Assembly (NCBI GenBank): GCA_965203275.1
Contig: OZ241865.1
Span: 1,440,001-1,504,000, forward strand
Direction: 5' to 3'
Source of the DNA: Bdellovibrionales bacterium
GTDB taxonomy: Bacteria > Bdellovibrionota > Bdellovibrionia > Bdellovibrionales > JAUICD01
DNA: 64,000 bases
Under the pieces are notes generated by a model, which did no database searches, had not been told where the DNA came from, and saw only the letters and a program-made list of their open reading frames with translations. Position 1 is the stretch's first letter; each line of letters starts with the position of its first letter. This document shows positions 1,036 to 61,222 of this stretch, in pieces. Position numbers and translations under genes: made by a program.

Positions 1036-3504
1036 CTATGAATTTCTAATAGCAAAATTTAAAGTTTCATCTTTTAATTTGTTATGTAATTCTTTGATCT
1101 CTTTTGATCTAGGATGTGCTTTTAAAGCCTTTTTCATAAATTCCCATAATCTTGCAATATATTCTTTTCTTTTTTGAATATCTTGAATTCCTTTTTTAGC
1201 CCATTTTAAACCTTGAGTACCTAGAATATGATAAGGACGAATATCTTTATAACCTCTTTCATCTATTAAATTTATTATCTCCTCATAAGCTTCTCCAGCC
1301 AGAAAATGCGATTTTTCATTGTGGGGTGCAGATAATACTTGTTGAAATTTTAAATTAGCTAAAGAAGTTCTTACCAAAGGGTCTTTAGGATTAAGTCCGT
1401 AAGATTGATTCAGATAATTTTCAGCAAGATCAATACGATTAACGGCTAACATAAAGCAACCTCTTTGCAACCAAAAGTGATGATGATCTTTTTGCAAATC
1501 TTCTATGTCCTCATAGAGCTTATAAACCTCATTGTGTGGCTTATAAGTTATCTTTAATAGTCTTTCATGGTTAATGATATGTTTTAAAAGCCTTTGCATC
1601 CTTTTTGTTTCAGACGTTTTCTCTATAGATTTAATGGCTGCTATCCTTGCTAATCTAGCATAAAATTTAATTAAATGGTTTTCTGATGATAATCTCTGAC
1701 ATATTTCTTCTGCAATGACTTTATGTCTTAATTGAATACGGCCTTTATTTTCTATAAATAAATTTCTTCTGATCAATTTGTCTATATGGTTAGAATGTGA
1801 ATTGCTCGCCTGATCTATTCCAAGCATGATTTCTTCTTTTAAAAGACCACAGTTGTAATTTGTAGCCACAGATGTTAAATAATAAATAGCCCTGGATGCT
1901 TCATCTAGCTGTTCTGATTCTTCATAGATTTTGTCTTTAAACTTTTTGCCTGAAGTAGATTCAATCATTGCGACTAATAATTGTCTTTGATAATTTCCTT
2001 TAAATATAGACCTTTGCTCATCTAAACTTTTCCCTTTTAAATATCCTAGTAGATTTTTTTGATCTAGTATTTTTAAGATTTTATCTATTTCATTATCTAA
2101 TAATCTGTATGTTGCAAATTCTTGAACGTCCTTTTTATTTTGAAAAAGTGGGCTTTCTATAATGTTATCTACCTTATTTGATCTTATCATTAAAACAATA
2201 GTTTTGAGAATATTTTGATTAGCTAATCTTGAGAGTATTTGAGGAAACCCTATTCCGTACATATCAGGAGTATCAATAAATAAAGCATTCATACTTTCAT
2301 TTTTTTCTAAAAAAGGTATAATTTGATGAGGAGGAATATCTGAATTGCGGTCAATCCAACCAACAATATAACTGTGATCTAATAAAGATAAAGCTATTTT
2401 CATAGCTAAAGATGTTTTACCATCGCCTGCTGTTCCAGTAATGATAAATATAGGAGTTGATTCCTTTTTTTTGTAATTTAGAATTTTTCTTGTCCATTCT
2501 TTTTCTTTGTCTCTTTCAATTGCAATACCTTCTGTCATGTCTTTCCAGGTCGGTTCTGCTCCTAGAAGGTAAGGACTCCTTATTTGAGATGTTTTTTGTA
2601 TCATCAAATCAGAAACAAGAGGAATATCATTTACTGTTGATGTACTAGAAGTACTTTGGATTTTTTGTATGCCTGCTTCAGTTTCATTTTTGAGTGGTAA
2701 TAAAAATTCTTTTGAAAATTCTTGAAAAGTTTGAGGTATCCATTCAATATTATAATCTTTTAAACGCATTTCTTTTAATTTTGATAGCTTTGGAATAACT
2801 ATAAATGATCTTGGTCTGAATTCTGTAGAACCTCTGCCTTTTTCTTTCCTAAGATGGATATAATGCCATAATGATTCTTCATCTAACTGACTGCCTATAA
2901 ATATAGTTGGATATTGTAAAAGCTTTGCAGTGAGAGACATATAAGATGCATTAGAATGTAGAGTATTGATAGCAGATTGTTCCCTAGAAAAAATAACATT
3001 GTCAGGCAGGTCCTCTAGCATTCCATTTAAGTGATTTACTATTAAATCTTTTTGATCATTAACCTCTTTTTGAGGTGGTGTACTTTCAGATATACAAACT
3101 ATTTTGCGATCAAAATTAAACCGGGCTTGTGTTGCCCTAAAAAGATCGTCTATGTTTAATGTATAAATTACTTTCCAAGGTTGATGAATAAGAATTTTAT
3201 ATTCCTCTGTAAGACTTTGAGAATCTACTGTAAGGCGTTGTTTTAAGTAGTTACAAAGCTGTTTTTCTCCTTTTTGTCTAGCTAATTCAAAAACATCTGC
3301 CAATGAATATGACTCTTCAAAAGAATCGTCAGGATAAAAGTTTTTCCAAATTTCTTTTGATAAATCCTTAGATGTAGGTAAAGCTTGCCCCTTCTTATCC
3401 TTTGCTCCTACAGAAAATCCGGCACCAGTAAAAAGCATTAAATGAGCTGTTGATAGCTTTCCTTTTAAATAATCTATTATGCTTTTCTTTTGTCTTTCAT
3501 CCAT
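1036..3504 (-). CDS. SIR2-like + STAND NTPase + TPR antiviral protein (Avs5-like architecture)
   Basis: LFTGAGFS, YTLNIDDL, HLNG, FIGSQL (SIR2_2); Walker A GTAGDGKT; helical TPR-like C-terminus. Confidence 0.8.
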   Translation of the reverse strand: MDERQKKSIIDYLKGKLSTAHLMLFTGAGFSVGAKDKKGQALPTSKDLSKEIWKNFYPDDSFEESYSLADVFELARQKGEKQLCNYLKQRLTVDSQSLTEEYKILIHQPWKVIYTLNIDDLFRATQARFNFDRKIVCISESTPPQKEVNDQKDLIVNHLNGMLEDLPDNVIFSREQSAINTLHSNASYMSLTAKLLQYPTIFIGSQLDEESLWHYIHLRKEKGRGSTEFRPRSFIVIPKLSKLKEMRLKDYNIEWIPQTFQEFSKEFLLPLKNETEAGIQKIQSTSSTSTVNDIPLVSDLMIQKTSQIRSPYLLGAEPTWKDMTEGIAIERDKEKEWTRKILNYKKKESTPIFIITGTAGDGKTSLAMKIALSLLDHSYIVGWIDRNSDIPPHQIIPFLEKNESMNALFIDTPDMYGIGFPQILSRLANQNILKTIVLMIRSNKVDNIIESPLFQNKKDVQEFATYRLLDNEIDKILKILDQKNLLGYLKGKSLDEQRSIFKGNYQRQLLVAMIESTSGKKFKDKIYEESEQLDEASRAIYYLTSVATNYNCGLLKEEIMLGIDQASNSHSNHIDKLIRRNLFIENKGRIQLRHKVIAEEICQRLSSENHLIKFYARLARIAAIKSIEKTSETKRMQRLLKHIINHERLLKITYKPHNEVYKLYEDIEDLQKDHHHFWLQRGCFMLAVNRIDLAENYLNQSYGLNPKDPLVRTSLANLKFQQVLSAPHNEKSHFLAGEAYEEIINLIDERGYKDIRPYHILGTQGLKWAKKGIQDIQKRKEYIARLWEFMKKALKAHPRSKEIKELHNKLKDETLNFAIRNS

Positions 3505-15547: not shown

Positions 15548-15608
15548 TTTTTTTGGACCTTTTATTATCTAACTTCGATGATCTTTGTCTACCCATACGT
15601 ATTTTATT

Positions 15609-16401
15609 TGCACTAAAAGTAAACTAGCCTCTGGCTACTTTCTGGCGATGACCACGATGGCTTTCGCCATCGATAAAATGGTCATCGCCTAGAAAACCTG
15701 ACCACTTTTAGTAGGAGGATCCTTTCCTCTTTTAACACCATGTTAAGGAAAACATCCTTCTAATGGTTTGCCCGACGGCTCTCGCCGTCGACAAAGGCTG
15801 ATTGCCTCAAAAACCGTTTATTTTTAGTAGGGGAGGATCTCTTCGTTTCTTTACATGATGTTAGGAAAAAATTTCCTTTATTGCAACTCGCTTGCTCCTT
15901 AAAAACATTTTAGAGGCATATCTTATTTCCCTAACATGGTGTCAAGAAGCAAGGAGATCCTCCCTACTCAAAATGAGCATATTTTTGAGGCATTGCTCTT
16001 TTTAGACAGCGTGAGCTGTCAGAGCAATGCCCAAAAACACACCAGAGGTGTGGCTCATTTTGAGTGAAATGTTAAGGAAAAAGAACTTCATTCGTAAATC
16101 CGCTTGCTCCTTAAAAGCATTTTAGAAGCATATCTTGTTTCCCTAACATGGTGTCAGAAGCAAGGAGATCCTCCCTACTCAAAATGCATAGATTTTTGAG
16201 GCAATGACCATTTTGCCAACGGCGTAAGCCGTTGCGGTCATTGCCCAACAGTGGCCAGAGGCCAGTTCACTTTGAGTGAAACAACTCCCTCCCTACTAAA
16301 AGTAAACGGATTTTTGAGGCAATCAGCCTTTGATCGACGGCGTGAGCCGTCGGGCTGATTGCCCAAAAACAGCCAGAGGCTGGTTTACTTTTAGTGAAAC
16401 A
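15609..16401. repeat. Cluster of palindromic repeat elements in both orientations
   Basis: At least five related units with self-complementary stems ending AGTGAAA(CA). Confidence 0.9.
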
Positions 16402-16916: not shown

Positions 16917-17092
16917 TCTTGTTTCCCTAACATGATGTTAAAAAACGAGGAGATCCTCCTTACTAAAAGTAAACGGACTTTTGAGGCATTGCTCTTTTTA
17001 GACAGCGATAGCTGTCAGAGCAATGTCCAAAAGCAACCAGAGGTTGGTTTACTTTTAGTGAACCAGAGGCATGATTTATTTTGAGTGAAACA
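16917..17092 (+). repeat. Palindromic repeat element plus the 3' end of a second unit
   Basis: tgtttccctaacatgatgttaa...tactaaaagtaaac...gtttacttttagtgaa. Confidence 0.85.
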
Positions 17093-17099
17093 ACTCCTC

Positions 17100-17487
17100 C
17101 TAGGCCTTTTGAAGGTCTGATACTTCTTGTTTGGAAAGTCCTGTAGCTTTGCAAATAGCTTGAATATCTACATGACCCGACTTAAGAAGATTTAAAGCAA
17201 CTTCTTTTAACCCTTCTTGTCGACCCTTTTCCATACCTCTTTCCATACCTCTTTCCATACCCTTTTCCATACCCTTTTGAAGGTCTGATACTTCTTGTTT
17301 GGAAAGTCCTGTAGCTTTGCAAATAGCTTGAATATCTACATGACCCGACTTAAGAAGATTTAAAGCAACTTCTTTTAACCCTTCTTGTCGACCCTTTTCC
17401 ATACCTCTTTCCATACCTCTTTCCATACCCTTTTCCATACCCTTTTCCATACCTTCTTGTATGGCTCTTGAATAAGTACTTGGCCAT
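17100..17487 (-). pseudogene. Third/fourth copies of the Rpn C-terminal module; the SD-linked ATG is out of frame
   Basis: atgatgcca shortened to atggcca; the in-frame ORF 17100..17450 carries two EGLKEVALNLLKSG domains. Confidence 0.65.
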
Positions 17488-17496
17488 TATTTCCTC

Positions 17497-17730
17497 CTAG
17501 GCCTTTTGAAGGTCCGATACTTCTTGTTTGGAAAGTCCTGTAGCTTTGCAAATAGCTTGAATATCTACATGACCCGACTTAAGAAGATTTAAAGCAACTT
17601 CTTTTAACCCTTCTTGTCGACCCTTTTCCATACCTCTTTCCATACCTCTTTCCATACCCTTTTCCATACCTTCTTCTCTACCCTTTTCCATACCTTCTTG
17701 TATGGCTCTTGAATAAGTACTTGGCATCAT
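17497..17730 (-). CDS. Stand-alone copy of the Rpn C-terminal module (RpnS-like)
   Basis: Identical to the last 76 aa of Rpn; own GGAGG SD overlaps the Rpn stop. Confidence 0.7.
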   Translation of the reverse strand: MMPSTYSRAIQEGMEKGREEGMEKGMERGMERGMEKGRQEGLKEVALNLLKSGHVDIQAICKATGLSKQEVSDLQKA

Positions 17731-17739
17731 TATTTCCTC

Positions 17740-18723
17740 CTAGGCCTTTTGAAGGTCCGATACTTCTTGTTTGGAAAGTCCTGTAGCTTTGCAAATAGCT
17801 TGAATATCTACATGACCCGACTTAAGAAGATTTAAAGCAACTTCTTTTAACCCTTCTTGTCGACCCTTTTCCATACCTCTTTCCATACCTCTTTCCATAC
17901 CCTTTTCCATACCTTCTTCTCTACCCTTTTCCATACCTTCTTGTATGGCTCTTGAATAAGTACTTGGCATAATTATTTCCTCCTTATTTGTTATAATTTC
18001 TTGTTCTATCTTATATAATATCTCTTTAGGATAATCTGCGGTCTGAAACATATACTCACTCAAAAAACCTGCATACTCTCGATAACTAATCACATCTTCA
18101 CTATCTCGACGACAAAGCTTTAGTATAGACCTTATTTTATCCTTAGTCATATTCTTAGCAAACTTCAGAGCATAACATAAAGCTACTATTGAACCTGCTT
18201 TATTCCAAATGTCATCCTCCGATATCTTATTTAAGTCTATCACAATCACACCAAAATTCAACCCCAAATCACCAAAAACCTTCCTCATTTCTGGTGTCCA
18301 ATTAAATGCCCCTTGCAAATCAGAAGCTGTATGAGACGAAGCATCATTGTGTAACAAAAAAATCGTCATAACAGGGTAAGTACCTGACTTTAAAAGTGCC
18401 ACGTTGTAATCTAAAACATTTAAAAAAAGTTGCTTCTGAGACTGCTTGAAGCTTTTATGCTCTATAATGACACCGACTAAGCCCTGCATCTTCATACCTT
18501 TAACACCTACTTTAGCTATGACATCAGACCGACACTCCTCAATCCGTCCACCTAATTTTTGATCTAAAAAGTCTGTCTTAATAAATTCCAATCGATTAAA
18601 CTCAAAAGCATTAAACTGATCCTTAGCCAATGAGAACTTGATAAAATCTTTAAATCTTTTAGGGTGTTTAAGACCCATCCTTGCTATTTGATCATGCTGA
18701 ATTCTAAAATCACTTTTTGACAT
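17740..18723 (-). CDS. Rpn family PD-(D/E)XK nuclease (recombination-promoting nuclease / putative transposase)
   Basis: HD...RSDVI...IIEHKS core; (E/R)GMEK repeats; internal AAGGAGG + ATG at 17970. Confidence 0.85.
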   Translation of the reverse strand: MSKSDFRIQHDQIARMGLKHPKRFKDFIKFSLAKDQFNAFEFNRLEFIKTDFLDQKLGGRIEECRSDVIAKVGVKGMKMQGLVGVIIEHKSFKQSQKQLFLNVLDYNVALLKSGTYPVMTIFLLHNDASSHTASDLQGAFNWTPEMRKVFGDLGLNFGVIVIDLNKISEDDIWNKAGSIVALCYALKFAKNMTKDKIRSILKLCRRDSEDVISYREYAGFLSEYMFQTADYPKEILYKIEQEIITNKEEIIMPSTYSRAIQEGMEKGREEGMEKGMERGMERGMEKGRQEGLKEVALNLLKSGHVDIQAICKATGLSKQEVSDLQKA

Positions 18724-34295: not shown

Positions 34296-35695
34296 GAGCA
34301 TGTCCTATAATTCGGTGAATTTTTCTTAGAGAAGATGTTAAGATAGAAGGCTCCTGGTTGGCATATTTCAGCCAACCAAATTTTATTAACAATTAACTTT
34401 TAAAAATAAAAAGAAAGGAGCCATTATGAAGTGTACCAAAAATAGTCATTCATTTCAAGTTTCAGCCAATACTTTGTCAGAAATTCGTCAGATTGTAGAG
34501 GATGAGATCAAGTCATCTATTCTTTGTTCGGTCTATGGTTTTTTTGAAGCAGAGCTATTAGAGCTTTGCGGTGAGCGTTATGGTCGTCATAGAGATACAC
34601 CATATCATAGAGCTGGTAGTGATAAAGGTAGCATACTTGCAGGTGGTCAAAAGTTGCAGGTTAGGAAGCCTCGTGTTAAGCAGTCAGGTCGTGAAGTGAG
34701 GCTTAAGATCTATTCAGCCCTTCAACACTATGACATACTCAGTGATCGTGTTTTAAAACATGCCATGAGTGGAGTTTCATCACGGAATTACAATCATCTT
34801 TTAGATGATATTTCAGGAGGGCTTAAACTTTCTAGGAGTAGTGTGAGTAGAGTTTTTAATAAGTCATCTAAACAAGCCCTTGAGTCGATTAACAATCGTG
34901 ATTTAAGTAAGTACAGGTTTCCAGCGATAATGATAGATGGAGTGGGTATTGGTTCTACGCTGGTTATAGTGGCCTTAGGAATCACAGATCAAGGTAAGAA
35001 GGTTATATTAGGTCTTAAAGAAGGCAATACAGAGAGTTGGGAAGTTTGCCGTGATCTTCTGGAGGGACTTATAGGTCGTGGTCTTGATAAAGAGAAGGGT
35101 TATCTTTTTGTGATTGATGGTAGCAAAGCATTAAGGAAGGGAATAGATAGAGTATTTTCAGGTCGTTCAGTAGTTCAGCGTTGTATTCAGCATAAAGAGA
35201 GAAATATTCTGAGTTGCTTACCTCCAAGTCGTCACATAGAGTTTAAGAGTCGTTGGAAGAAGTTACATGGTATGCCAGATGAGTTGTCATCGAAGTTAGA
35301 GCATGAGTCTTTATTAAGCTGGTTAAAGCGGGTCAATCATTCAGCATTCACATCTTTAAAAGAGGCAGAGATGGAGACACTGACAACGATCAAGCTTGGA
35401 GTTTCATTACTTTTAAGGAGGTCATTATCATCGACAAATCCTATTGAGTCTGTTTTTTCAGTTGTGAGGGAAAAAGTTCGGAGGGTAAAGAATTGGAGTT
35501 CTTCTTCAGATCAAGTTTTAAGATGGTCTGCTGTGAGTCTATTGGAAGCAGAAAAACATTTCAAAAGCATTAAAGGATTTAAAGATTTAGAACAATTAGA
35601 ACAAAGTTTAAAAAAAATTATTATTGACAAAAAGAAAAAACAATTAAAAACTAATTTATGAGCCGTCTATTTTCACCGATATCAGGGACAAGCTC
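34296..35695 (+). mobile_element. Complete IS256-family element (1400 bp) with 8-bp target duplication
   Basis: Imperfect TIRs GAGCATGTCC...TCGGTGAA / GAGCTTGTCC...TCGGTGAA; GATTTATT at 34288-34295 and 35696-35703. Confidence 0.92.
34426..35661 (+). CDS. IS256-family DDE transposase
   Basis: GVSSR, IMIDG, VIDGSKAL, QRCIQHKERN, STNPIES. Confidence 0.92.
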   Translation: MKCTKNSHSFQVSANTLSEIRQIVEDEIKSSILCSVYGFFEAELLELCGERYGRHRDTPYHRAGSDKGSILAGGQKLQVRKPRVKQSGREVRLKIYSALQHYDILSDRVLKHAMSGVSSRNYNHLLDDISGGLKLSRSSVSRVFNKSSKQALESINNRDLSKYRFPAIMIDGVGIGSTLVIVALGITDQGKKVILGLKEGNTESWEVCRDLLEGLIGRGLDKEKGYLFVIDGSKALRKGIDRVFSGRSVVQRCIQHKERNILSCLPPSRHIEFKSRWKKLHGMPDELSSKLEHESLLSWLKRVNHSAFTSLKEAEMETLTTIKLGVSLLLRRSLSSTNPIESVFSVVREKVRRVKNWSSSSDQVLRWSAVSLLEAEKHFKSIKGFKDLEQLEQSLKKIIIDKKKKQLKTNL

Positions 35696-37558: not shown

Positions 37559-37831
37559 CACTCAAAGTGAACAGGCTTTTGAGACAATGACCACTTTGTC
37601 AAAGGCGAAAAAAGTGAAATAAATATCTTGTTTCCTTAACTTCCTGTAAAGAAACAGGAGGATTCTTCCTACTAAAAATAAACGGATTTTTGAGGCAATC
37701 AGCCTTTGATCGACGGCGGTAGCCGTCGGGCTGATTGCCCAAAAACAGCCAGAGGCTGGTTTATTTTTAGTGAGACAAAATGCGGTCATTGTCCAAAAGT
37801 GGCCAGAGGCCAGTTCACTTTGAGTGAAACA
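37559..37831 (+). repeat. Nested pair of palindromic elements upstream of the pilin gene
   Basis: Outer stem CAAAGTGAAC/GTTCACTTTG enclosing an inner AAAAATAAAC/GTTTATTTTT unit. Confidence 0.9.
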
Positions 37832-48420: not shown

Positions 48421-49186
48421 TTAGTAAAAGTGGTCTGACCTCTGTTTCCCTAAAATTGAACTAGCCGTCATTTTCACTCAAAATGCATCATGCCGTCTTT
48501 TGCACTTGAAATGAACCACACCTCTGTTTCCCTAAAATTGAACTAGCCTCTGGCTACTTTTGGGCAGTTAGCCCGACGACTGTCGTCGTCGATCAAAGGC
48601 TAACTCCCTCAAAAGCTTGTTCAATTTTAGGAAGAAGGATGTCCTCATTTCTTAACAGCATGTTAAGGAAAAAGAGTTTCATTTGTAAACCTGCTTGCTC
48701 TTAAGGCAATAAAAGAACTTTTTCCCTAACATGGTGTAAAGGAGTAAAAAGATCCTCCCCTACTCAAAATGCATAGATTTTTGAGGCAATGACTATTTTG
48801 TCAACGTGAAGTAAACATCTTGTTTCCTTAACATCGTGTAAAGAGACAAGAGGATTCTTCTTACTAAAAATAAACGGATTTTTGAGGCATTGCTCTTTTT
48901 GGACAGCGTAAGCTGTCAGAGCAATGCCCAAAAACAGCCAGAGGCTGGTTTATTTTTAGTGAAACAAACGCGGTCATTGCCCAAGGTGTAAGAAGGAACT
49001 TTTTCCTTAACATGTGGTCAAGAGACGAAGAGATTCTTCTTCCTAAAATTGAACAAGCTTTTGAGGCGGTTAGCCTTTGATCGACGGCGGTAGCCGTCGG
49101 GCTAACTGCCCAAAAGTAGCCAGAGGCTAGTTCAATTTTAGGGAAACAGAGGCATGATGCATTTTGAGTGAAATATTAAGGAAAAA
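48421..49186. repeat. Nested cluster of palindromic elements
   Basis: Reverse-oriented nest 48421-48680 and forward nest 48720-49172 (outer CAAAATGCAT/ATGCATTTTG with two inner units). Confidence 0.9.
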
Positions 49187-49269: not shown

Positions 49270-49932
49270 TTATTTTTTCATTTTTTGTTTTCTAGCCTCT
49301 AAGATTCTTAAATGCTGTTTTTTCTCTTCGTCTCCATCTCTACAGCATTTTTTATATTTCTTCCTGCTTCCACAAGGACATTTTTCATTTTTTCCTATTT
49401 TCTTAAGTGAAGTTATATATTTTTTGCTATCTTCTATAGCTTCCTCTATACCTTTTTTGCCATGAGAATATTCCCCGCATGGTGGTATTTTCCTATACTT
49501 TTCATAATAAGCTTGCCATACAAAATATGGGTAAACTCTGTAAATAATAAAATCTTTGAGAGATGCGGTTCTTTTAAGGGGAATCAATTCTAAACAACAA
49601 CTCTTGTCATTAGGATAGAGGTGTAAATCTTGAACTTTTTTGTTTAATTTTTTTGCCAGTCTTTCAATTTTTTCACCGATCTCATATACTTTTGGCCATC
49701 CTAGTGGATGATTATTAAAGTCAATTTCTATGAGATACTCACCTGTAACACATTCATTTTCATTTGTTTCACAAGGCTTTATCTCCCACTGATCTATGGA
49801 ATTTTCTTTTTTCACATAGTGACAGGGATGAATAATAATATGACCGGTAATTTTATTATCATTCTGACAATATTTAAGATCAGGAAACCATTTAAGAGTT
49901 TCTTTAAAATCATTACTTGAATATTCTATCAT
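49270..49932 (-). CDS. E2/UBC-like protein with C-terminal SEC-C motif (CBASS ancillary)
   Basis: YLIEIDF..WPKVYE..LHLYPNDKSCCL; GKNEKCPCGSRKKYKKCC; start inferred at MIEYS. Confidence 0.7.
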   Translation of the reverse strand: MIEYSSNDFKETLKWFPDLKYCQNDNKITGHIIIHPCHYVKKENSIDQWEIKPCETNENECVTGEYLIEIDFNNHPLGWPKVYEIGEKIERLAKKLNKKVQDLHLYPNDKSCCLELIPLKRTASLKDFIIYRVYPYFVWQAYYEKYRKIPPCGEYSHGKKGIEEAIEDSKKYITSLKKIGKNEKCPCGSRKKYKKCCRDGDEEKKQHLRILEARKQKMKK

Positions 49933-50902
49933 CAAACGCATAAGGTTTAGTTGCTGGTACTGTAGGAAGAATAGCACTTTCTTTACGAGAAGACGAAGAA
50001 TCTATCAATCGACCAAAATGATCACCGAATAATTCACGCCATTTTTTGACGCTACTATTGTAATCTTCTTCTTCAAAAGCTTGATTAATTTTTCCATTAT
50101 ACGAATTAAACTTTTCTCTAAAATTCTTATATTTTACTTCATCCCAATGCCTGTTGAAATCCTCACTTGACATCACTGGATTTTTAATAATTGGCATAGA
50201 TGGACGGTTTTGCAAAAAATTATTTAGTCTATTTGAGAGGGTTTTCAAAGTTGTTGGTAAATCTGAAAAGCTTTCACTGTCTTTATCATCAGTTTGCACC
50301 ATATTACCTAAAAGAGTGGTCAACAGTATTGACTTAACAGAAAAGTTATCTTTATGATCTCTCAAAAATTTTAAAAGTCTAGTCACCTTTCTAAAATTAT
50401 TATTACCAACAATTTCATTTTTTTGTGCTAGCCATTGTTTATATCCATCACCATCTGTTGGCTCATATTTGCTATCGTTTCTATTAGTGATATAATGTAC
50501 TTCATTATGTTCTACACAAGGGACAATATCTAAGTGAAAATCACCAGCATAATTAATTGTCACACATCTTGTCTTTTTATTGATCTTATCTTCGTAATTG
50601 CCATTATTTTTGAATATCTCATAAATTTTTCTTACATAGTCAGTTTTAAAATCATTTGGATTAAAATCAGAATCCTGAATAAATATCAATAGATCAGCAT
50701 CAAACTCGTCATTATCTTTTACAGGTTTAATAATAGTTTTATGGGCATAAGAACCTTGCTCACTAAACTTTCTGTAACCTGACAAATTTTCTTTAAGTAA
50801 TTTCGTGATTGTTTCTATGCGTCCTTTTAATGTATCTAACCGGTCTTGATTAAGATCTACACGCTTAGACAAAAAATCTTTAAAATCTCTTTCGTGCTTC
50901 AT
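49913..50902 (-). CDS. CBASS CD-NTase (cGAS/DncV-like nucleotidyltransferase)
   Basis: QGSYAHKTIIKP..EFDADL..RCVTINY..FHLDIVP. Confidence 0.9.
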   Translation of the reverse strand: MKHERDFKDFLSKRVDLNQDRLDTLKGRIETITKLLKENLSGYRKFSEQGSYAHKTIIKPVKDNDEFDADLLIFIQDSDFNPNDFKTDYVRKIYEIFKNNGNYEDKINKKTRCVTINYAGDFHLDIVPCVEHNEVHYITNRNDSKYEPTDGDGYKQWLAQKNEIVGNNNFRKVTRLLKFLRDHKDNFSVKSILLTTLLGNMVQTDDKDSESFSDLPTTLKTLSNRLNNFLQNRPSMPIIKNPVMSSEDFNRHWDEVKYKNFREKFNSYNGKINQAFEEEDYNSSVKKWRELFGDHFGRLIDSSSSRKESAILPTVPATKPYAFDDRIFK

Positions 50903-51823
50903 TTATACCTCCTTAAGAAAATTCTTAATTTTTGCACTTTGGTTTGTAAACTCTTGCTTTGCTTTTTCTTTGAAATTAGCTATTTCTCTATAATTGTCAA
51001 GACTACAATATTCGATATTTGGATTAATTCTCAAAATATTGTCTTTATTATCCTTAAAAATCAAATTTAAGACATTTTCTGGAAACTTTGTCTGACAAGA
51101 CATAACAAAATCTACAAATTTAGTTTTTTCCCATCCATATAATAGTCCCCAATTTTTTGATTTTTGATAACATTGTTCTGATTTTCCAGTTCCTATAGAT
51201 AATATTTTGACATTATTTGTCTTTGCTTTAAAATTATTAATAGCATCTGTATAACCCACAAGAGCGGGATTATTTGCCCATATACCTCCATCACAAATAA
51301 GAGTTCCATTTATATTTACTGGGTCAAAATAAGTTGGTGTTGCACAAGAAGCTAAAACAGCTTTAAATAAAGGTATTTCGCCATCTCTCACATAGCCAGC
51401 GTTTCCTCTTTGCTTCTGCTGGTAAGCCGACTTAAAAACATGGACGTCTCCCATACTGACATTTGTAGCATTAAGAATAAGAGGTTTTTTAATTTCTCCT
51501 AGCTTTTTCTCTTTGAATTTCTGGTGAAGAAATATCTCTAAGTGATGATTATTATATTTTGATCTAAAAAGTCCACATAAATTCCATTGTTTTTGAAAAA
51601 TCTCAGGAGCCTTTTCTGAGTAATCATCAACTAATTGAGCTAAATCACTGTCTATTGCCACTGTTCCAGCTACAATGCTCCCTGTGCTTGTACCGACAAT
51701 AAGATCAAAAGTATCATGTATTTTTATATTTAGCTTTGCTTCTATAAGAGCTAATATCTTAGTAGCAAATATTCCCTTTATCCCACCTCCATCAATACTT
51801 AAAATTTTAAACATTTTATTCAT
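50903..51823 (-). CDS. capV: Patatin-like phospholipase CBASS effector
   Basis: DGGGIKG, GTSTG, DGGIWANNP; directly upstream of the CD-NTase. Confidence 0.85.
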   Translation of the reverse strand: MNKMFKILSIDGGGIKGIFATKILALIEAKLNIKIHDTFDLIVGTSTGSIVAGTVAIDSDLAQLVDDYSEKAPEIFQKQWNLCGLFRSKYNNHHLEIFLHQKFKEKKLGEIKKPLILNATNVSMGDVHVFKSAYQQKQRGNAGYVRDGEIPLFKAVLASCATPTYFDPVNINGTLICDGGIWANNPALVGYTDAINNFKAKTNNVKILSIGTGKSEQCYQKSKNWGLLYGWEKTKFVDFVMSCQTKFPENVLNLIFKDNKDNILRINPNIEYCSLDNYREIANFKEKAKQEFTNQSAKIKNFLKEV

Positions 51824-54843: not shown

Positions 54844-55269
54844 TTATCTATATTTGATAATTTTAGAAAGTAATGATTTTATTTTTGCAAAAAATCTAAC
54901 AGGCTTCTTTTCTTTTTCAATATTTAATTGTTTTTCTTGTATTTGATAATATTTCTCTTTTTTGAGTAAGTCTTTCCTTCTTCCTTCTAAAATTTCTTTT
55001 TTAGACCATCTTCTACTCCAAATAATATTACTATTTTTTATCCAATAGTGAGATTTACAATTAAAGCTCCAGTTTCCTATAGAAGGATCAAGTGAAATAG
55101 TATATCCATTATAGATAATTTTCCAATCTGTAGGACTTATAGGCGTGACGACTTCTTCACCACATCCACAAAAACAATTATGAGAAGCTGTATTATATTT
55201 TATAGAAATATAGATAATATTATCTTCTAAGACATTTGGAATATTTGTAACAAATTTATGTTTGATCAT
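54844..55269 (-). CDS. DUF6527-like protein (Bub-operon peptidase)
   Basis: HNCFCGCGEEVVTP..W..SLDPSIGNW..CKSHYWI. Confidence 0.8.
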   Translation of the reverse strand: MIKHKFVTNIPNVLEDNIIYISIKYNTASHNCFCGCGEEVVTPISPTDWKIIYNGYTISLDPSIGNWSFNCKSHYWIKNSNIIWSRRWSKKEILEGRRKDLLKKEKYYQIQEKQLNIEKEKKPVRFFAKIKSLLSKIIKYR

Positions 55270-56464
55270 CTACTTTGTCCTCATTTATTAAAGAATTGCA
55301 CTCTATTTGATATAAAGTAGTATACTCTTTACTACAATCAAAATAAAATTCGTTTATTTTTTTCCACTTTATTACAGCTAGGGAAGCATTAAGAGCATTA
55401 AGTTCAGCAACTTGAATATTTGTTGAATATGGATCATTATTGCCATCAGAATATGAAACTCTATTATCAAGATGATTTTTCTTATCTTTTGTGCATAGAG
55501 TAGTTCTTACATTACCAAGTATTTTTTGATCTTGATTACAAAGTCCCATTCCTACATCAATAAATGGTATCTCTTTATTGATGAGAAAATTGAATAATTC
55601 TTTTTTAACACATCCTTGATCTATACAGATGAAAACAAAGCTTTTTTCTGATAATTTATTAAACTTAGATGATTTAATATTATATGGATAAGAGATGATA
55701 TTTTTGTGCATTTTCGAATAAACTTCCTTTAAATAATTCGTTTTTTTGACTTTTTCATTTAAATTTTCCTTTGAAGCTACTCCAGGAGTTCTAAAGGCAT
55801 TATGATTTAAAAAAATATCACCATCAAATAAACTGATTTCTCTGACAGGTGTTTTTGCAACAAAATCTAAGATATAAGCTCCAGTTCCTCCCAAACCTAT
55901 AATGGCAATTTTTTGATCTTTTAACTTCATAGATATATTATTAATATTAGATTTACTTGAATTGGTATCTTTATACTGAAATACAGAATTATCCATATCT
56001 TTATCTTTAGATATAGATTGTCTAGAAGTTGCTGTCACAGAAGAGTCTATTGATTGAGCTGGATGAGAAATAATACGAACATAATTAGTTATTTTTTCAT
56101 AATAATCTTTATATCCCTCATTTGGCTTATTTGAAAATGAATATTGAATATCATAACCAGCAATATTTTCATTTTTTGATTCATTTCGAATTGACTCTAT
56201 AGGGTTCCCTTGATTATCACAAGGATACTCCCCTGTAAAGAAAATAACGTGGGTTTCTGGCTTAACTGTTTTATCTCCGGCTAGTGTTAAAGCTGATATA
56301 AGCTCACCGTATTTAATTTCTTTTTTGGAATTGATATATGGAATCTTATGAACAATTAGATAAGAATCCTTTATTTCAAGCTTATAACCATCTTCTTTAA
56401 GTTTTTTTAAATCAGAGCTATGATTTATCAGTTTTTGTGACACTAAACACCATCCCATCTTCAA
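55256..56464 (-). CDS. E2-like + ThiF/E1 adenylyltransferase fusion (Bub-like)
   Basis: IAIIGLGGTGAY, FDGD...HNAFR, NIQVAELNALNA; N-terminal FSNKP..Y.DYYEK domain. Confidence 0.8.
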   Translation of the reverse strand: MKMGWCLVSQKLINHSSDLKKLKEDGYKLEIKDSYLIVHKIPYINSKKEIKYGELISALTLAGDKTVKPETHVIFFTGEYPCDNQGNPIESIRNESKNENIAGYDIQYSFSNKPNEGYKDYYEKITNYVRIISHPAQSIDSSVTATSRQSISKDKDMDNSVFQYKDTNSSKSNINNISMKLKDQKIAIIGLGGTGAYILDFVAKTPVREISLFDGDIFLNHNAFRTPGVASKENLNEKVKKTNYLKEVYSKMHKNIISYPYNIKSSKFNKLSEKSFVFICIDQGCVKKELFNFLINKEIPFIDVGMGLCNQDQKILGNVRTTLCTKDKKNHLDNRVSYSDGNNDPYSTNIQVAELNALNASLAVIKWKKINEFYFDCSKEYTTLYQIECNSLINEDKVDDQT

Positions 56465-59869: not shown

Positions 59870-60199
59870 ATGAGATTTTTATTTTTAGTTTTAATAATAT
59901 GTTTGGCTTCAGTAGAAGCCAGAGCTGAAAGATCGGAAAGTCTATTTAAATACTTAGGTAGGCAGATTAAAAACATGGACGAAAGGATGACTAAAAATGC
60001 AAAAGCCAATAGAGCTGACTGGCGGAGAGAGAATTCCTGTATTAGAAGATGTTATCATAACCAGTTAGGTATTAAAAGGCCTTCAAAGGGTGTTGAAAGG
60101 AGAAGGTTTTTTAGAAAGAGAAATAGAATACTGAACAGGTGCAGGTCAGGTTGCATCCGCGAAAGGATGTTAAGAAATGAAGACATCCTCCCCTACTAA
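59870..60199 (+). CDS. Small secreted basic Cys-containing protein
   Basis: AAGGAG SD; signal peptide ending ARA; last 10 codons and stop come from a repeat element. Confidence 0.6.
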   Translation: MRFLFLVLIICLASVEARAERSESLFKYLGRQIKNMDERMTKNAKANRADWRRENSCIRRCYHNQLGIKRPSKGVERRRFFRKRNRILNRCRSGCIRERMLRNEDILPY

Positions 60200-61222
60200 A
60201 AGTGGTCAGACAGCAAGCTTCTCTGAAGCTTGCCATGTAACAACACTAGGCAATGACCATTTTGTCAATGGCGAAATATCAAAGTGAAATAAACATTTTG
60301 TTTCCATAACATCGTGTTCATCTGGGATCCGGGATCGGGCAATCCGGCATCAAAAGGAAATTTTTCCTTAACATGGTGTTAAAAAATGAGGATATCCTCC
60401 TTCCTAAAATTGAACAGGCTTTTAAGGGTATCAGGCAGAAAAGGCATTTTGTTTCCTTAACATGATGTTGATCCGGGATCCCGGGATCCGGCAACCCGGC
60501 ATCAAAAAGAATTGTTTCCTTAACATCATGTTAAGAAACGATGAGATTCTCTCTACTCAAAGTGAACAGTCTTTCTAGGCGATGACCATTTTGTCAACGT
60601 GAAATAAACATCTTGTTTCCTTAACATCGTGTAAAGAGACAAGAGGATTCTTCCTATTAAAAATAAACGGATTTTTGAGGCAATCAGCCTTTGATCGACG
60701 GCGAGAGCCGTCGGGCTGATTGCCCAAAAACAGCCAGAGGCTGGTTTATTTTTAGTGAGACAAACGCGGTCATTGCCCGAGGTGTAAGAAGGAACTTTTT
60801 CCTTAACATAATGTTAAGAAATGAGGAGATCCTCCTTCCTAAAATTGAACAGGCTTTTGAGGCAGTTAGCCTTTGATCGACGGCGAGAGCCGTCGGGCTG
60901 ATTGCCCAAAAACAGCCAGAGGCTGGTTTATTTTTAGTGAGATAACGCCCAAAACACACCAGAGGTGTGGTTCATTTCAAGGGAAACAGAGGCTGGTTTG
61001 CTTTTAGTGAGACAAATGCGGTCATTGCCCGAGGTGTAAGAAGGAACTTTTTCCTTAACATGATGTTAAGAAATGAGGACATCCTCCTTCCTAAAATTGA
61101 ACAGGCTTTTGAGGCAGTTAGCCTTTGATCGACAGCGACAGCCGTCGGGCTAACTGCCCAAAAGTAGCCAGAGGCTAGTTCAATTTTAGGGAAACAGAGG
61201 TCAGACCACTTTTAGTGAAACA
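60167..61222 (+). repeat. ~1-kb multiply nested cluster of palindromic elements
   Basis: Outermost stem TAAAAGTGGTC (~60197) / GACCACTTTTA (~61204) encloses several complete and partial units. Confidence 0.9.

Follow-up and report, generated by a model that had tools for sequence, protein, structure and literature searches.

For most of the abundant repeats of bacteria a mobiliser is known or likely, a RAYT in the case of REPs and DDE transposases in the case of MITEs. Elements of the IS200/IS605 type insert precisely 3' of a fixed tetra- or pentanucleotide without loss of target, with an orientation bias to the lagging strand, and IS91/ISCR elements and non-LTR retroelements have one fixed end and one variable end that is able to carry flanking DNA. 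REP, BIME and REPIN sequences are palindromes found in hundreds of intergenic copies and in variable arrays (PMC3333891, PMC6006769). A REP is a hairpin of 30-40 nt, recognised by GTAG or GTGG located 0-2 nt 5' of a fully paired hairpin of 7-20 bp (PMC6006769), and REPINs are obligatory inverted pairs. The bcr1 repeat of the Bacillus cereus group (approximately 155 bp) is described as an RNA structure with a branched fold and compensatory changes; its positions are not conserved, its host range is narrow, and 5-bp direct repeats are reported at every site (PMC3184786). The same source defines bacterial MITEs as non-coding, foldable sequences of less than 200 bp with imperfect terminal inverted repeats. 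Finally, heptamer cassettes that carry a four-helix-bundle (FHB) gene (PF05635/TIGR02436) are related to the S23p intervening sequences of 23S rRNA; heptameric repeats precede the S23p ORF of Coxiella, and an idea cited in the same paper is that this ORF served mobility (PMC4990558).

The element studied here was recognised in a 64,000-nt stretch of the genome of a Bdellovibrionales bacterium (the window). It shares with REP, BIME and REPIN sequences the hundreds of intergenic palindromic copies in variable arrays, a structure of the single-stranded DNA type, the absence of target duplication and, in 76% of units, a GTAG at the foot of a hairpin. However, it forms a 145-nt three-way junction, has no cognate Y1 gene, carries a variable leader and extra bases at its junctions, and is nested head-to-tail rather than in inverted pairs. 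Size, branched fold with compensatory changes, non-conserved positions and narrow host range recall bcr1, from which it differs in having no fixed duplication, in its DNA-type loops and in inserting into itself. Resemblances to attC, dif, CtrA boxes, retron msr-msd and parvoviral ITRs were considered and set aside. In place of the precise insertion of the IS200/IS605 type, target loss and extra bases are seen. The combination of one fixed and one variable end is that of IS91/ISCR and non-LTR retroelements, but no Y2 or RT gene was found in the genome of the window (G000) and there is no precise target tetranucleotide. With the FHB heptamer cassettes the element shares genomes, sites, mutual insertion and the lack of a known transposase, and one of its leader lineages matches the cassette 5' UTR; unlike the cassettes and the S23p intervening sequences, it has neither a PF05635 ORF nor heptamer arms of its own, and the cassettes also exist alone. 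The element works like a REP or a MITE as a non-autonomous foldable repeat and lacks defining features of both. The preliminary description had called it REP/REPIN- or MITE-like; the resemblance, which includes MITE-like size, foldability and imperfect terminal inverted repeats, holds, whereas membership does not (no RAYT and the wrong size on one side, neither target duplication nor an end-matched transposase on the other).

The genome of the window is a single 2.57-Mb contig with 35% GC, and named homologues of its PRPP synthase belong mostly to Bdellovibrionota. The core of the element, 145 nt of non-coding sequence, begins with TTTCC and ends with GTGAAA. With k-mers taken from 554 distinct full copies, a parse of the whole genome assigned 2,094 segments to it, grouped in 659 arrays and totalling 164,823 bp, or 6.4% of the genome. 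The segments comprise 652 full units, 718 without the 5' part, 401 without the 3' part and 323 internal pieces, the 1,442 partial segments making up two thirds of the total. The 5' anchor alone gives 1,128 genome matches, compared with 7 for the reversed motif. In short-read run X2, the summed contig depth over the element bin was 11,883 as against ~51 for single-copy DNA, and element depth was comparably raised in three further short-read runs; the repeat is not an assembly artefact, as independent short-read assemblies place it far above single-copy depth. Part of the window region is present in sponge metagenomes. Rfam 15 gave no match at the gathering score within the window, in line with the earlier failure to assign the element to a family, and no description of the family or of an FHB-linked non-coding element was found in a literature search of open-access main texts.

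The interval 15608-16399 of the window consists of three full units, one 3'-truncated and one 5'-truncated unit, and further arrays occur across the window (Table 1). The unit length of ~150-190 bp given previously takes in leader and tail in addition to the core, and the clean example placed at 60611-60762 is indeed a unit, with bounds 60616-60760. For the segment 60611-60765 the folding z-score is -8.9 (DNA) and -8.6 (RNA), a stability that none of 200 shuffled sequences reached.

Table 1 Copies of the element within the window. Positions in units refer to the 145-nt model.
Feature	Position in window	Strand	Remarks
Full 145-nt unit, model positions 1-145	15608..15751	-	covariance model, 143 bits
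3'-truncated unit, positions 7-101	15770..15863	-	broken by leader of full unit 15608-15751
Spacer	15864..15925	.	half hairpin of another repeat family and purine-rich leader of next unit
Full unit	15926..16069	+	3' end joined to inverted 5' stub of another copy
Full unit	16138..16281	+	
5'-truncated unit, positions 34-145	16288..16399	+	3' end intact
Full unit and stacked 3' stub (119-145)	16922..17090	+	ends beside stop codon of minus-strand Rpn (YhgA-like) fragment
Array: internal fragment, near-full unit, 3' stub	37560..37829	+	
Back-to-back array, 3' ends outward	48425..49173	.	minus side four stacked 3' stubs; plus side nested insertions
Nested array: full units 60616-60760, 60798-60942, 61050-61194	60166..61220	+	stubs; two heptamer runs

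At least two further repeat families, seen at 15864-15925 and genome-wide, receive insertions of the element. One is a long hairpin with CGAAGTCCTC (65 matches); the other has a unit with CGTACGGGTAG (43 matches) and contains a stretch resembling the 3' end of the element. Elsewhere in the window, 49270-51823 and 54844-56464 encode a patatin, a SMODS/DncV-like nucleotidyltransferase and a SEC-C protein, with ThiF and DUF6791 nearby, and represent a putative CBASS-like defence region, so named from Pfam matches. A SIR2-like domain fused to a STAND NTPase (1036-3504) is likely another defence protein.

Copying has been recent: 31 groups of identical units lie more than 20 kb apart, 22 of them with different 3' flanks. 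Element positions differ between species, and a comparison of empty sites in relatives, as had been proposed, found all three testable orthologous sites that are filled in relatives to be empty in G000. Copy number, dispersal, lineage-specific sites and a conserved fold support the earlier view of the element as a structure-selected, non-coding, non-autonomous mobile repeat.

To describe the fold, 61 units from three species were aligned, selected from 72 with the remainder excluded by hand, several of these being length variants. The three-way junction is closed by an outer stem of 14 bp and bears a long arm as well as a 5-bp hairpin whose loop is AGA. The long arm consists of 6 bp, a bulged A, 10-11 bp, an internal loop, 7 bp and a GNNA loop; the covarying 6-bp helix at its base is missing from the earlier description. 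In the resulting 54-pair structure, 91.5% of cells are paired and 34 of the 54 pairs show a double change, which is reached in 0 of 500 shuffles; the covariation score of 0.378 compares with 0.174 for shuffles and 0.06-0.09 for slid partners, the alignment rows being related paralogues whose cells are not independent events. RNAalifold predicts 41 pairs from the same 61 units, 29 with double changes. The three-way junction with compensatory covariation put forward in the preliminary description is confirmed, and the alleles it named all recur: its seven outer-stem alleles, said to be usually matched by their complements, are among the nine commonest, and the four paired long-arm alleles and six GC-GNNA-GC apical loops are all present. 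The 5' hairpin it proposed is poorly supported, being 78% paired with compensatory change in one of seven pairs and missing in the RNAalifold consensus; a second hairpin in the 5' region is 80% paired and weak. Unpaired motifs at both ends of the element are near-invariant across the three species. Units of the sister species (G001) and of the third species often have a longer small hairpin, with one or two palindromic modules of 14 nt added to it (loci L020, L025, L029, L030, L037, L049, L051 and L009:4845-5002).

Because paralogues share alleles by descent, linkage between segments was compared with their distance, using 532 parsable units out of 561 distinct ones. In 423 of the 532 the outer stem has one of nine 5'/3' allele pairs with an exact match. 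Normalised mutual information between the outer strands, ~80 nt apart, is 0.74, compared with 0.29-0.68 between either strand and the intervening segments (0.34 for the outer 5' strand with the inner arm, 0.54 for the outer 3' strand with its neighbour). Likewise, the two strands of the long arm reach 0.82, as against 0.53-0.55 for neighbouring segments. Modules reassort while helices stay matched. Linkage follows pairing, which suggests that the fold is under selection or that one arm serves as the repair template of its partner; the matching of stems could also arise by template-switch repair inside the hairpin, without selection.

The top strand is marked by a T.G pair at the base of the outer stem, present in 532 of 532 units, and it is on this strand that the loops read GNNA. 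It folds better than its complement as DNA in 93 of 120 units and as RNA in 66 of 120. Of 475 GNNA loops, 179 (38%) have a pyrimidine in third position (GNYA), off the RNA GNRA rule, with 62% fitting it; 45 more loops are GNNNA pentaloops, and those of relatives also include GTTA, GTCA, ATTA and ATAA. GATA, GACA and GTTA form stable DNA mini-hairpins, the RNA versions being far less stable, and among triloops only those of the GNA type are extra-stable (PMC13037366). The near-invariant AGA loop of the element lies outside the extra-stable DNA triloops described there and is left unexplained. The earlier suggestion that single-stranded DNA mini-hairpins fit better than the RNA GNRA rule is thus upheld by the GNNA loops and not by the AGA loop. 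Taken together, folded single-stranded DNA is favoured over RNA.

The two ends of the element differ in character. The 3' end is sharp, with 1,316 segments stopping at position 145, followed by a few A/C-rich bases; 1,015 segments start at position 1, preceded by a purine-rich, variable leader whose bias fades past ~13 nt. The same leaders recur in unrelated left contexts, and the leader travels with the unit. The ends form imperfect inverted repeats, most often with 8-9 of 14 matches, the 5' end being extended by the leader, and 113 full units read TG...CA. On the bottom strand, GTAG stands at the foot of a short hairpin in 419 of 550 units (76%) and another tetranucleotide in the other 131; the hairpin after GTAG is ~4 bp long and 80% paired. 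Among 1,323 3' junctions, 597 are in another unit, 187 in another repeat and 539 in unique DNA, the corresponding numbers for 1,015 5' junctions being 381, 375 and 259.

Strict paralogous empty sites were identified for 6 of 186 arrays (4 distinct), with target losses of 0, 11, 14 and 29 nt, the leaders measuring 11-27 nt and the tails 2-6 nt; a looser search found 33 of 186, in which visual inspection showed the same pattern. Insertions of unit into unit (142 triplets, not independent, many being copies of one event) lose target in 109 cases, 40 of them by 12-14 nt, are flush in 4 and duplicate target in 29. No excess of flank duplication was detected, matches of at least 10 nt occurring in 6 of 187 arrays and 5 of 187 controls; long flank duplications seen by eye in a few loci of G001 and the third species were kept out of these counts. 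We rejected the idea that the leader resembles the target bases it replaces (4.11 vs 4.15 +/- 0.09; 198 of 300 permutations as high). Among the joints listed from contigs of seven sequencing runs, no clear case of an empty allele was observed. The junctions match neither classical MITE transposition nor precise HUH transposition.

Units nest in and destroy other units and interrupt genes, and within arrays their orientation is mostly head-to-tail. No array lies inside a called gene, in a gene set that excluded ORFs rich in unit sequence. There is a mild excess between convergent genes (95 of 350 arrays vs 227 of 1,221 gaps), no bias in orientation relative to flanking genes (97 vs 86), and a balanced orientation with respect to replichores, which GC skew defines poorly in this genome (316 vs 306, p 0.72). 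Tandem amplification of a unit that took in 40-90 bp of its flank, the end of rpsQ among it, was observed at L011:4930-5330, L025, L046 and L050.

The 5' pattern was counted 881 times in G000, 241 times in the sister species and 8 times in G004, with none in G002 or G003. It occurs in 3 of 301 genomes of the order, and the covariance model identified the same three carriers among 61 genomes. G004 was discounted as a carrier in another genus, as the element copies listed all lie on contaminant contigs C1, C4 and C11. Proteins on these contigs are 68-80% identical to those of G000 and 55-65% to those of G003, the reverse of the large G004 contigs, and one of the carrier contigs duplicates the S10 operon, a second S10 operon being on C14. 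The three contigs (L009, L010 and L011) belong to a third species close to G000 and lie within the G004 bin. The family was found only in one genus. The full-unit pattern has no match in metagenome and viral contigs, and a shorter pattern none in metagenomes; 29 viral matches to a loose pattern all failed the covariance model. Plasmids and phages gave no match to the element, and among the matches listed in a genome-collection scan, the loci came from one record.

A linked HUH (RAYT/TnpA) transposase or reverse transcriptase, the search for which had been suggested, was not found in G000. There were no matches to Y1_Tnp (PF01797) or RVT_1 in this genome, the positive controls matching in 6 and 3 of 14 genomes respectively, and a scan of 2,049 G000 ORFs for HUH and RT motifs yielded no credible candidate. 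Searches for Y2_Tnp (0 of 5 genomes) and Rep_1 (none in G000) were weak, in that their positive controls matched nowhere; IS110 was found in none of G000, G001 and G004. The sister species has one Y1 gene, IS200-like with hairpin ends of its own and no unit nearby, and three RTs with no unit within 1.5 kb (loci L012, L016, L018 and L019). From their motifs we take two of these RTs to be of the group II intron type and one to be retron-like, with a long N-terminal extension. Presence/absence comparison with the whole of G003 and 1.16 of ~1.6 Mb of G004 returned FHB, IS1634 and another, presumably Fic-like, protein, and no HUH protein or RT. IS256 and IS1634 are both present, with ends unlike those of the element. 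IS256 makes clean target duplications, including inside units; its transposase is encoded at 34426-35661 of the window, and its copies are 99.8-100% identical with short target duplications, some lying in element copies. Adjacency to the element is seen for 2 of 9 IS256, 1 of 7 IS1634 and 0 of 7 serine recombinase genes.

All 39 Rpn nuclease ORFs of G000 adjoin the element (19 of 19 and 20 of 20), and several of their frames begin inside a unit. A role of Rpn as mobiliser was not replicated in relatives: in G001, 0 of 5 PDDEXK_2 loci carry a unit and the other subfamily turns up at 3 of the 34 element-centred loci, and 14 Rpn-like matches in G003 come without any element. Many of the 39 Rpn-like ORFs or fragments in G000 are broken by the element. 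In the window, 17100-18723 holds an Rpn (YhgA-like) gene and, behind it, a 116-aa tandem copy of that gene's repetitive C-terminus.

The FHB protein (101 aa; PF05635, TIGR02436; weak match to PDB 2GSC) is 23S-IVP/Avd-like. It has 14 matches in G000 and 19 each in G001 and G004, and is multi-copy also in G021 (18), G025 (11), G026 (7) and G031 (6). The gene lies between heptamer runs behind a hairpin 5' UTR (L074:521-823 and other G000 sites; L078, L081, L079 and L082) and is under purifying selection, with dN/dS of 0.03-0.15; the whole constitutes a mobile cassette with no transposase nearby. At L088 and L090, two FHB genes stand head to head about one 5' UTR palindrome, as if by fold-back copying. 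We know of no catalytic activity for the FHB fold.

The element adjoins 11 of 11 intact FHB genes in G000, compared with 343 of 1,109 core genes (31%). Its 5' anchor follows 23 of 27 FHB 3' ends in the same orientation, with 20 different leaders and one match perhaps due to chance. The association is replicated in G001, where 8 of 34 element-centred loci hold an FHB gene (7 distinct copies) as against ~1 expected, and in both species units break the FHB gene near residues 66-70. Of 297 heptamer runs, 170 lead straight into a unit and 89 start just past the first ~18 bases of one. A leader lineage shared by both species resembles the 5' UTR of G004-type FHB genes, with match scores of 17-19 (control maxima 14 and 17), and leaders overall are slightly nearer to FHB UTRs than to ordinary upstream regions (8.85 vs 8.32; 9.59 vs 8.50). 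An apparently perfect co-occurrence profile of FHB and element lost one of its three genomes once the G004 contigs proved to be contaminant. FHB cassettes are found without the element in G004 proper and in four other FHB-rich genomes of the order, which counts against a causal role of this candidate mobiliser.

On balance, we lean towards the element spreading selfishly as a folded single strand that is copied into a nick or break, not cut and pasted. The spreading strand would be the strand as written, with DNA more likely than RNA. A released top strand may be protected by its 14-bp closing stem and DNA mini-hairpin loops, in which case copies with matched stems would propagate best. A 3'-OH of the target could then prime on the 3' end of the element, with a polymerase copying through the leader, and the new end might rejoin the target on either side of the break, with a deletion or a duplication as the outcome; as the leader is no closer to the replaced target than to other positions, this rejoining step is without support from homology. 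Composites that end in the 3' end of a unit may be mobilised as a whole; this would account for junctions that recur, for stacks of 3' stubs and for cargo carried along. The leading, if tentative, candidate for a trans-acting factor is whatever machinery mobilises the FHB heptamer cassette, with host repair acting on breaks made by the abundant Rpn-type nucleases second to it. In its most specific form, which we regard as unlikely, the element would be the non-autonomous partner of the transposase-less FHB/heptamer cassette: an Avd-like protein would recognise the shared purine-rich leader and TTTCCT on the folded single strand and recruit host polymerase to copy it into breaks.

Other routes to such a distribution must be weighed against copying of a folded strand. 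The loops of single-stranded DNA type, the bottom-strand GTAG in 419 of 550 units, the absence of target duplication and the mild excess between convergent genes would all suit a REP/REPIN-like element moved by an HUH Y1 transposase (RAYT) that was recently lost or resides on an unassembled replicon, and TnpA-REP cleaves variable CT sites and builds variable arrays (PMC3333891). We consider this unlikely: PF01797 and HUH-motif candidates are lacking in G000, the only Y1 gene of G001 is IS200-like with its own ends and lies away from units, the post-GTAG hairpin of ~4 bp falls short of the 7-20 bp in the REP rule (PMC6006769), and 131 of 550 units have another tetranucleotide, with extra bases at the junctions. 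Slightly less probable again is a SINE-like retro-element that is transcribed and reverse-transcribed in trans at target nicks. Such a route could account for the fixed 3' end, the excess of 5' truncation, the stacked 3' stubs, the A/C-rich extra bases and the variable deletions and duplications; G001 encodes three RTs, and PF05635 is equated with Avd, an RT accessory protein, which makes FHB its homologue (PMC10053308). However, G000, the genome with the most copies, has no RVT_1 match or convincing RT motif, units are absent within 1.5 kb of the G001 RTs, GNYA makes up 38% of the GNNA loops, and orientation is unbiased (97 vs 86).

Alternatively, there may be no dedicated mobiliser; the element would then spread by gene conversion and by template switching during replication at hairpins, and its stems would be kept matched through copying of one arm from its partner. 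No candidate enzyme was found, 597 of 1,323 3' and 381 of 1,015 5' junctions lie within other units, G001 has tandem arrays that include flanks, and template switching at Rpn-made ends has been proposed (PMC5350276). We nevertheless judge this improbable, since the 539 3' ends joined to unique DNA at the same unit position need a free intermediate with a defined end, and the near-invariant unpaired end motifs are those expected of protein-recognition sites. Mobilisation as a classical MITE by one of the genome's own DDE transposases is largely refuted: both IS256 and IS1634 are present and the element has imperfect inverted-repeat ends with 113 TG...CA units, but there is no target duplication, the ends of both IS families are unlike those of the element, and IS256 makes clean duplications. 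Least credible of all is a functional RNA or regulatory signal that the host retains, such as a stem for mRNA processing where, as reported for this genome, RNase E, Y and J are lacking. The fold is strong and in a relative a unit lies between rpsQ and rplN; against this, positions are not conserved between species, units nest, destroy each other and interrupt genes, and two thirds of segments are fragments. The units may still have a secondary host role.

What is new here is the linkage test, the tally of empty sites, the corrected range and the replicated FHB link. In this organism 6% of the genome is one recently copied, fold-selected repeat for which no mobiliser gene of the RAYT or DDE kind was found and whose junctions fit neither chemistry. 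If the link to PF05635 is causal, a widespread protein whose function is unknown, first seen in 23S rRNA intervening sequences, would gain in the element a substrate open to testing, and the element would bear on the origin of bacterial heptamer repeats; if it is not, the copies still form a clean natural dataset on the DNA loops and stems that survive selection. Should the element indeed be the partner of the FHB cassette, it would define a class of mobile DNA in bacteria whose movement relies on primed copying, without a transposase or RT of its own, and the ~2,000 junctions reported here would be the first dense mechanistic record of that class.
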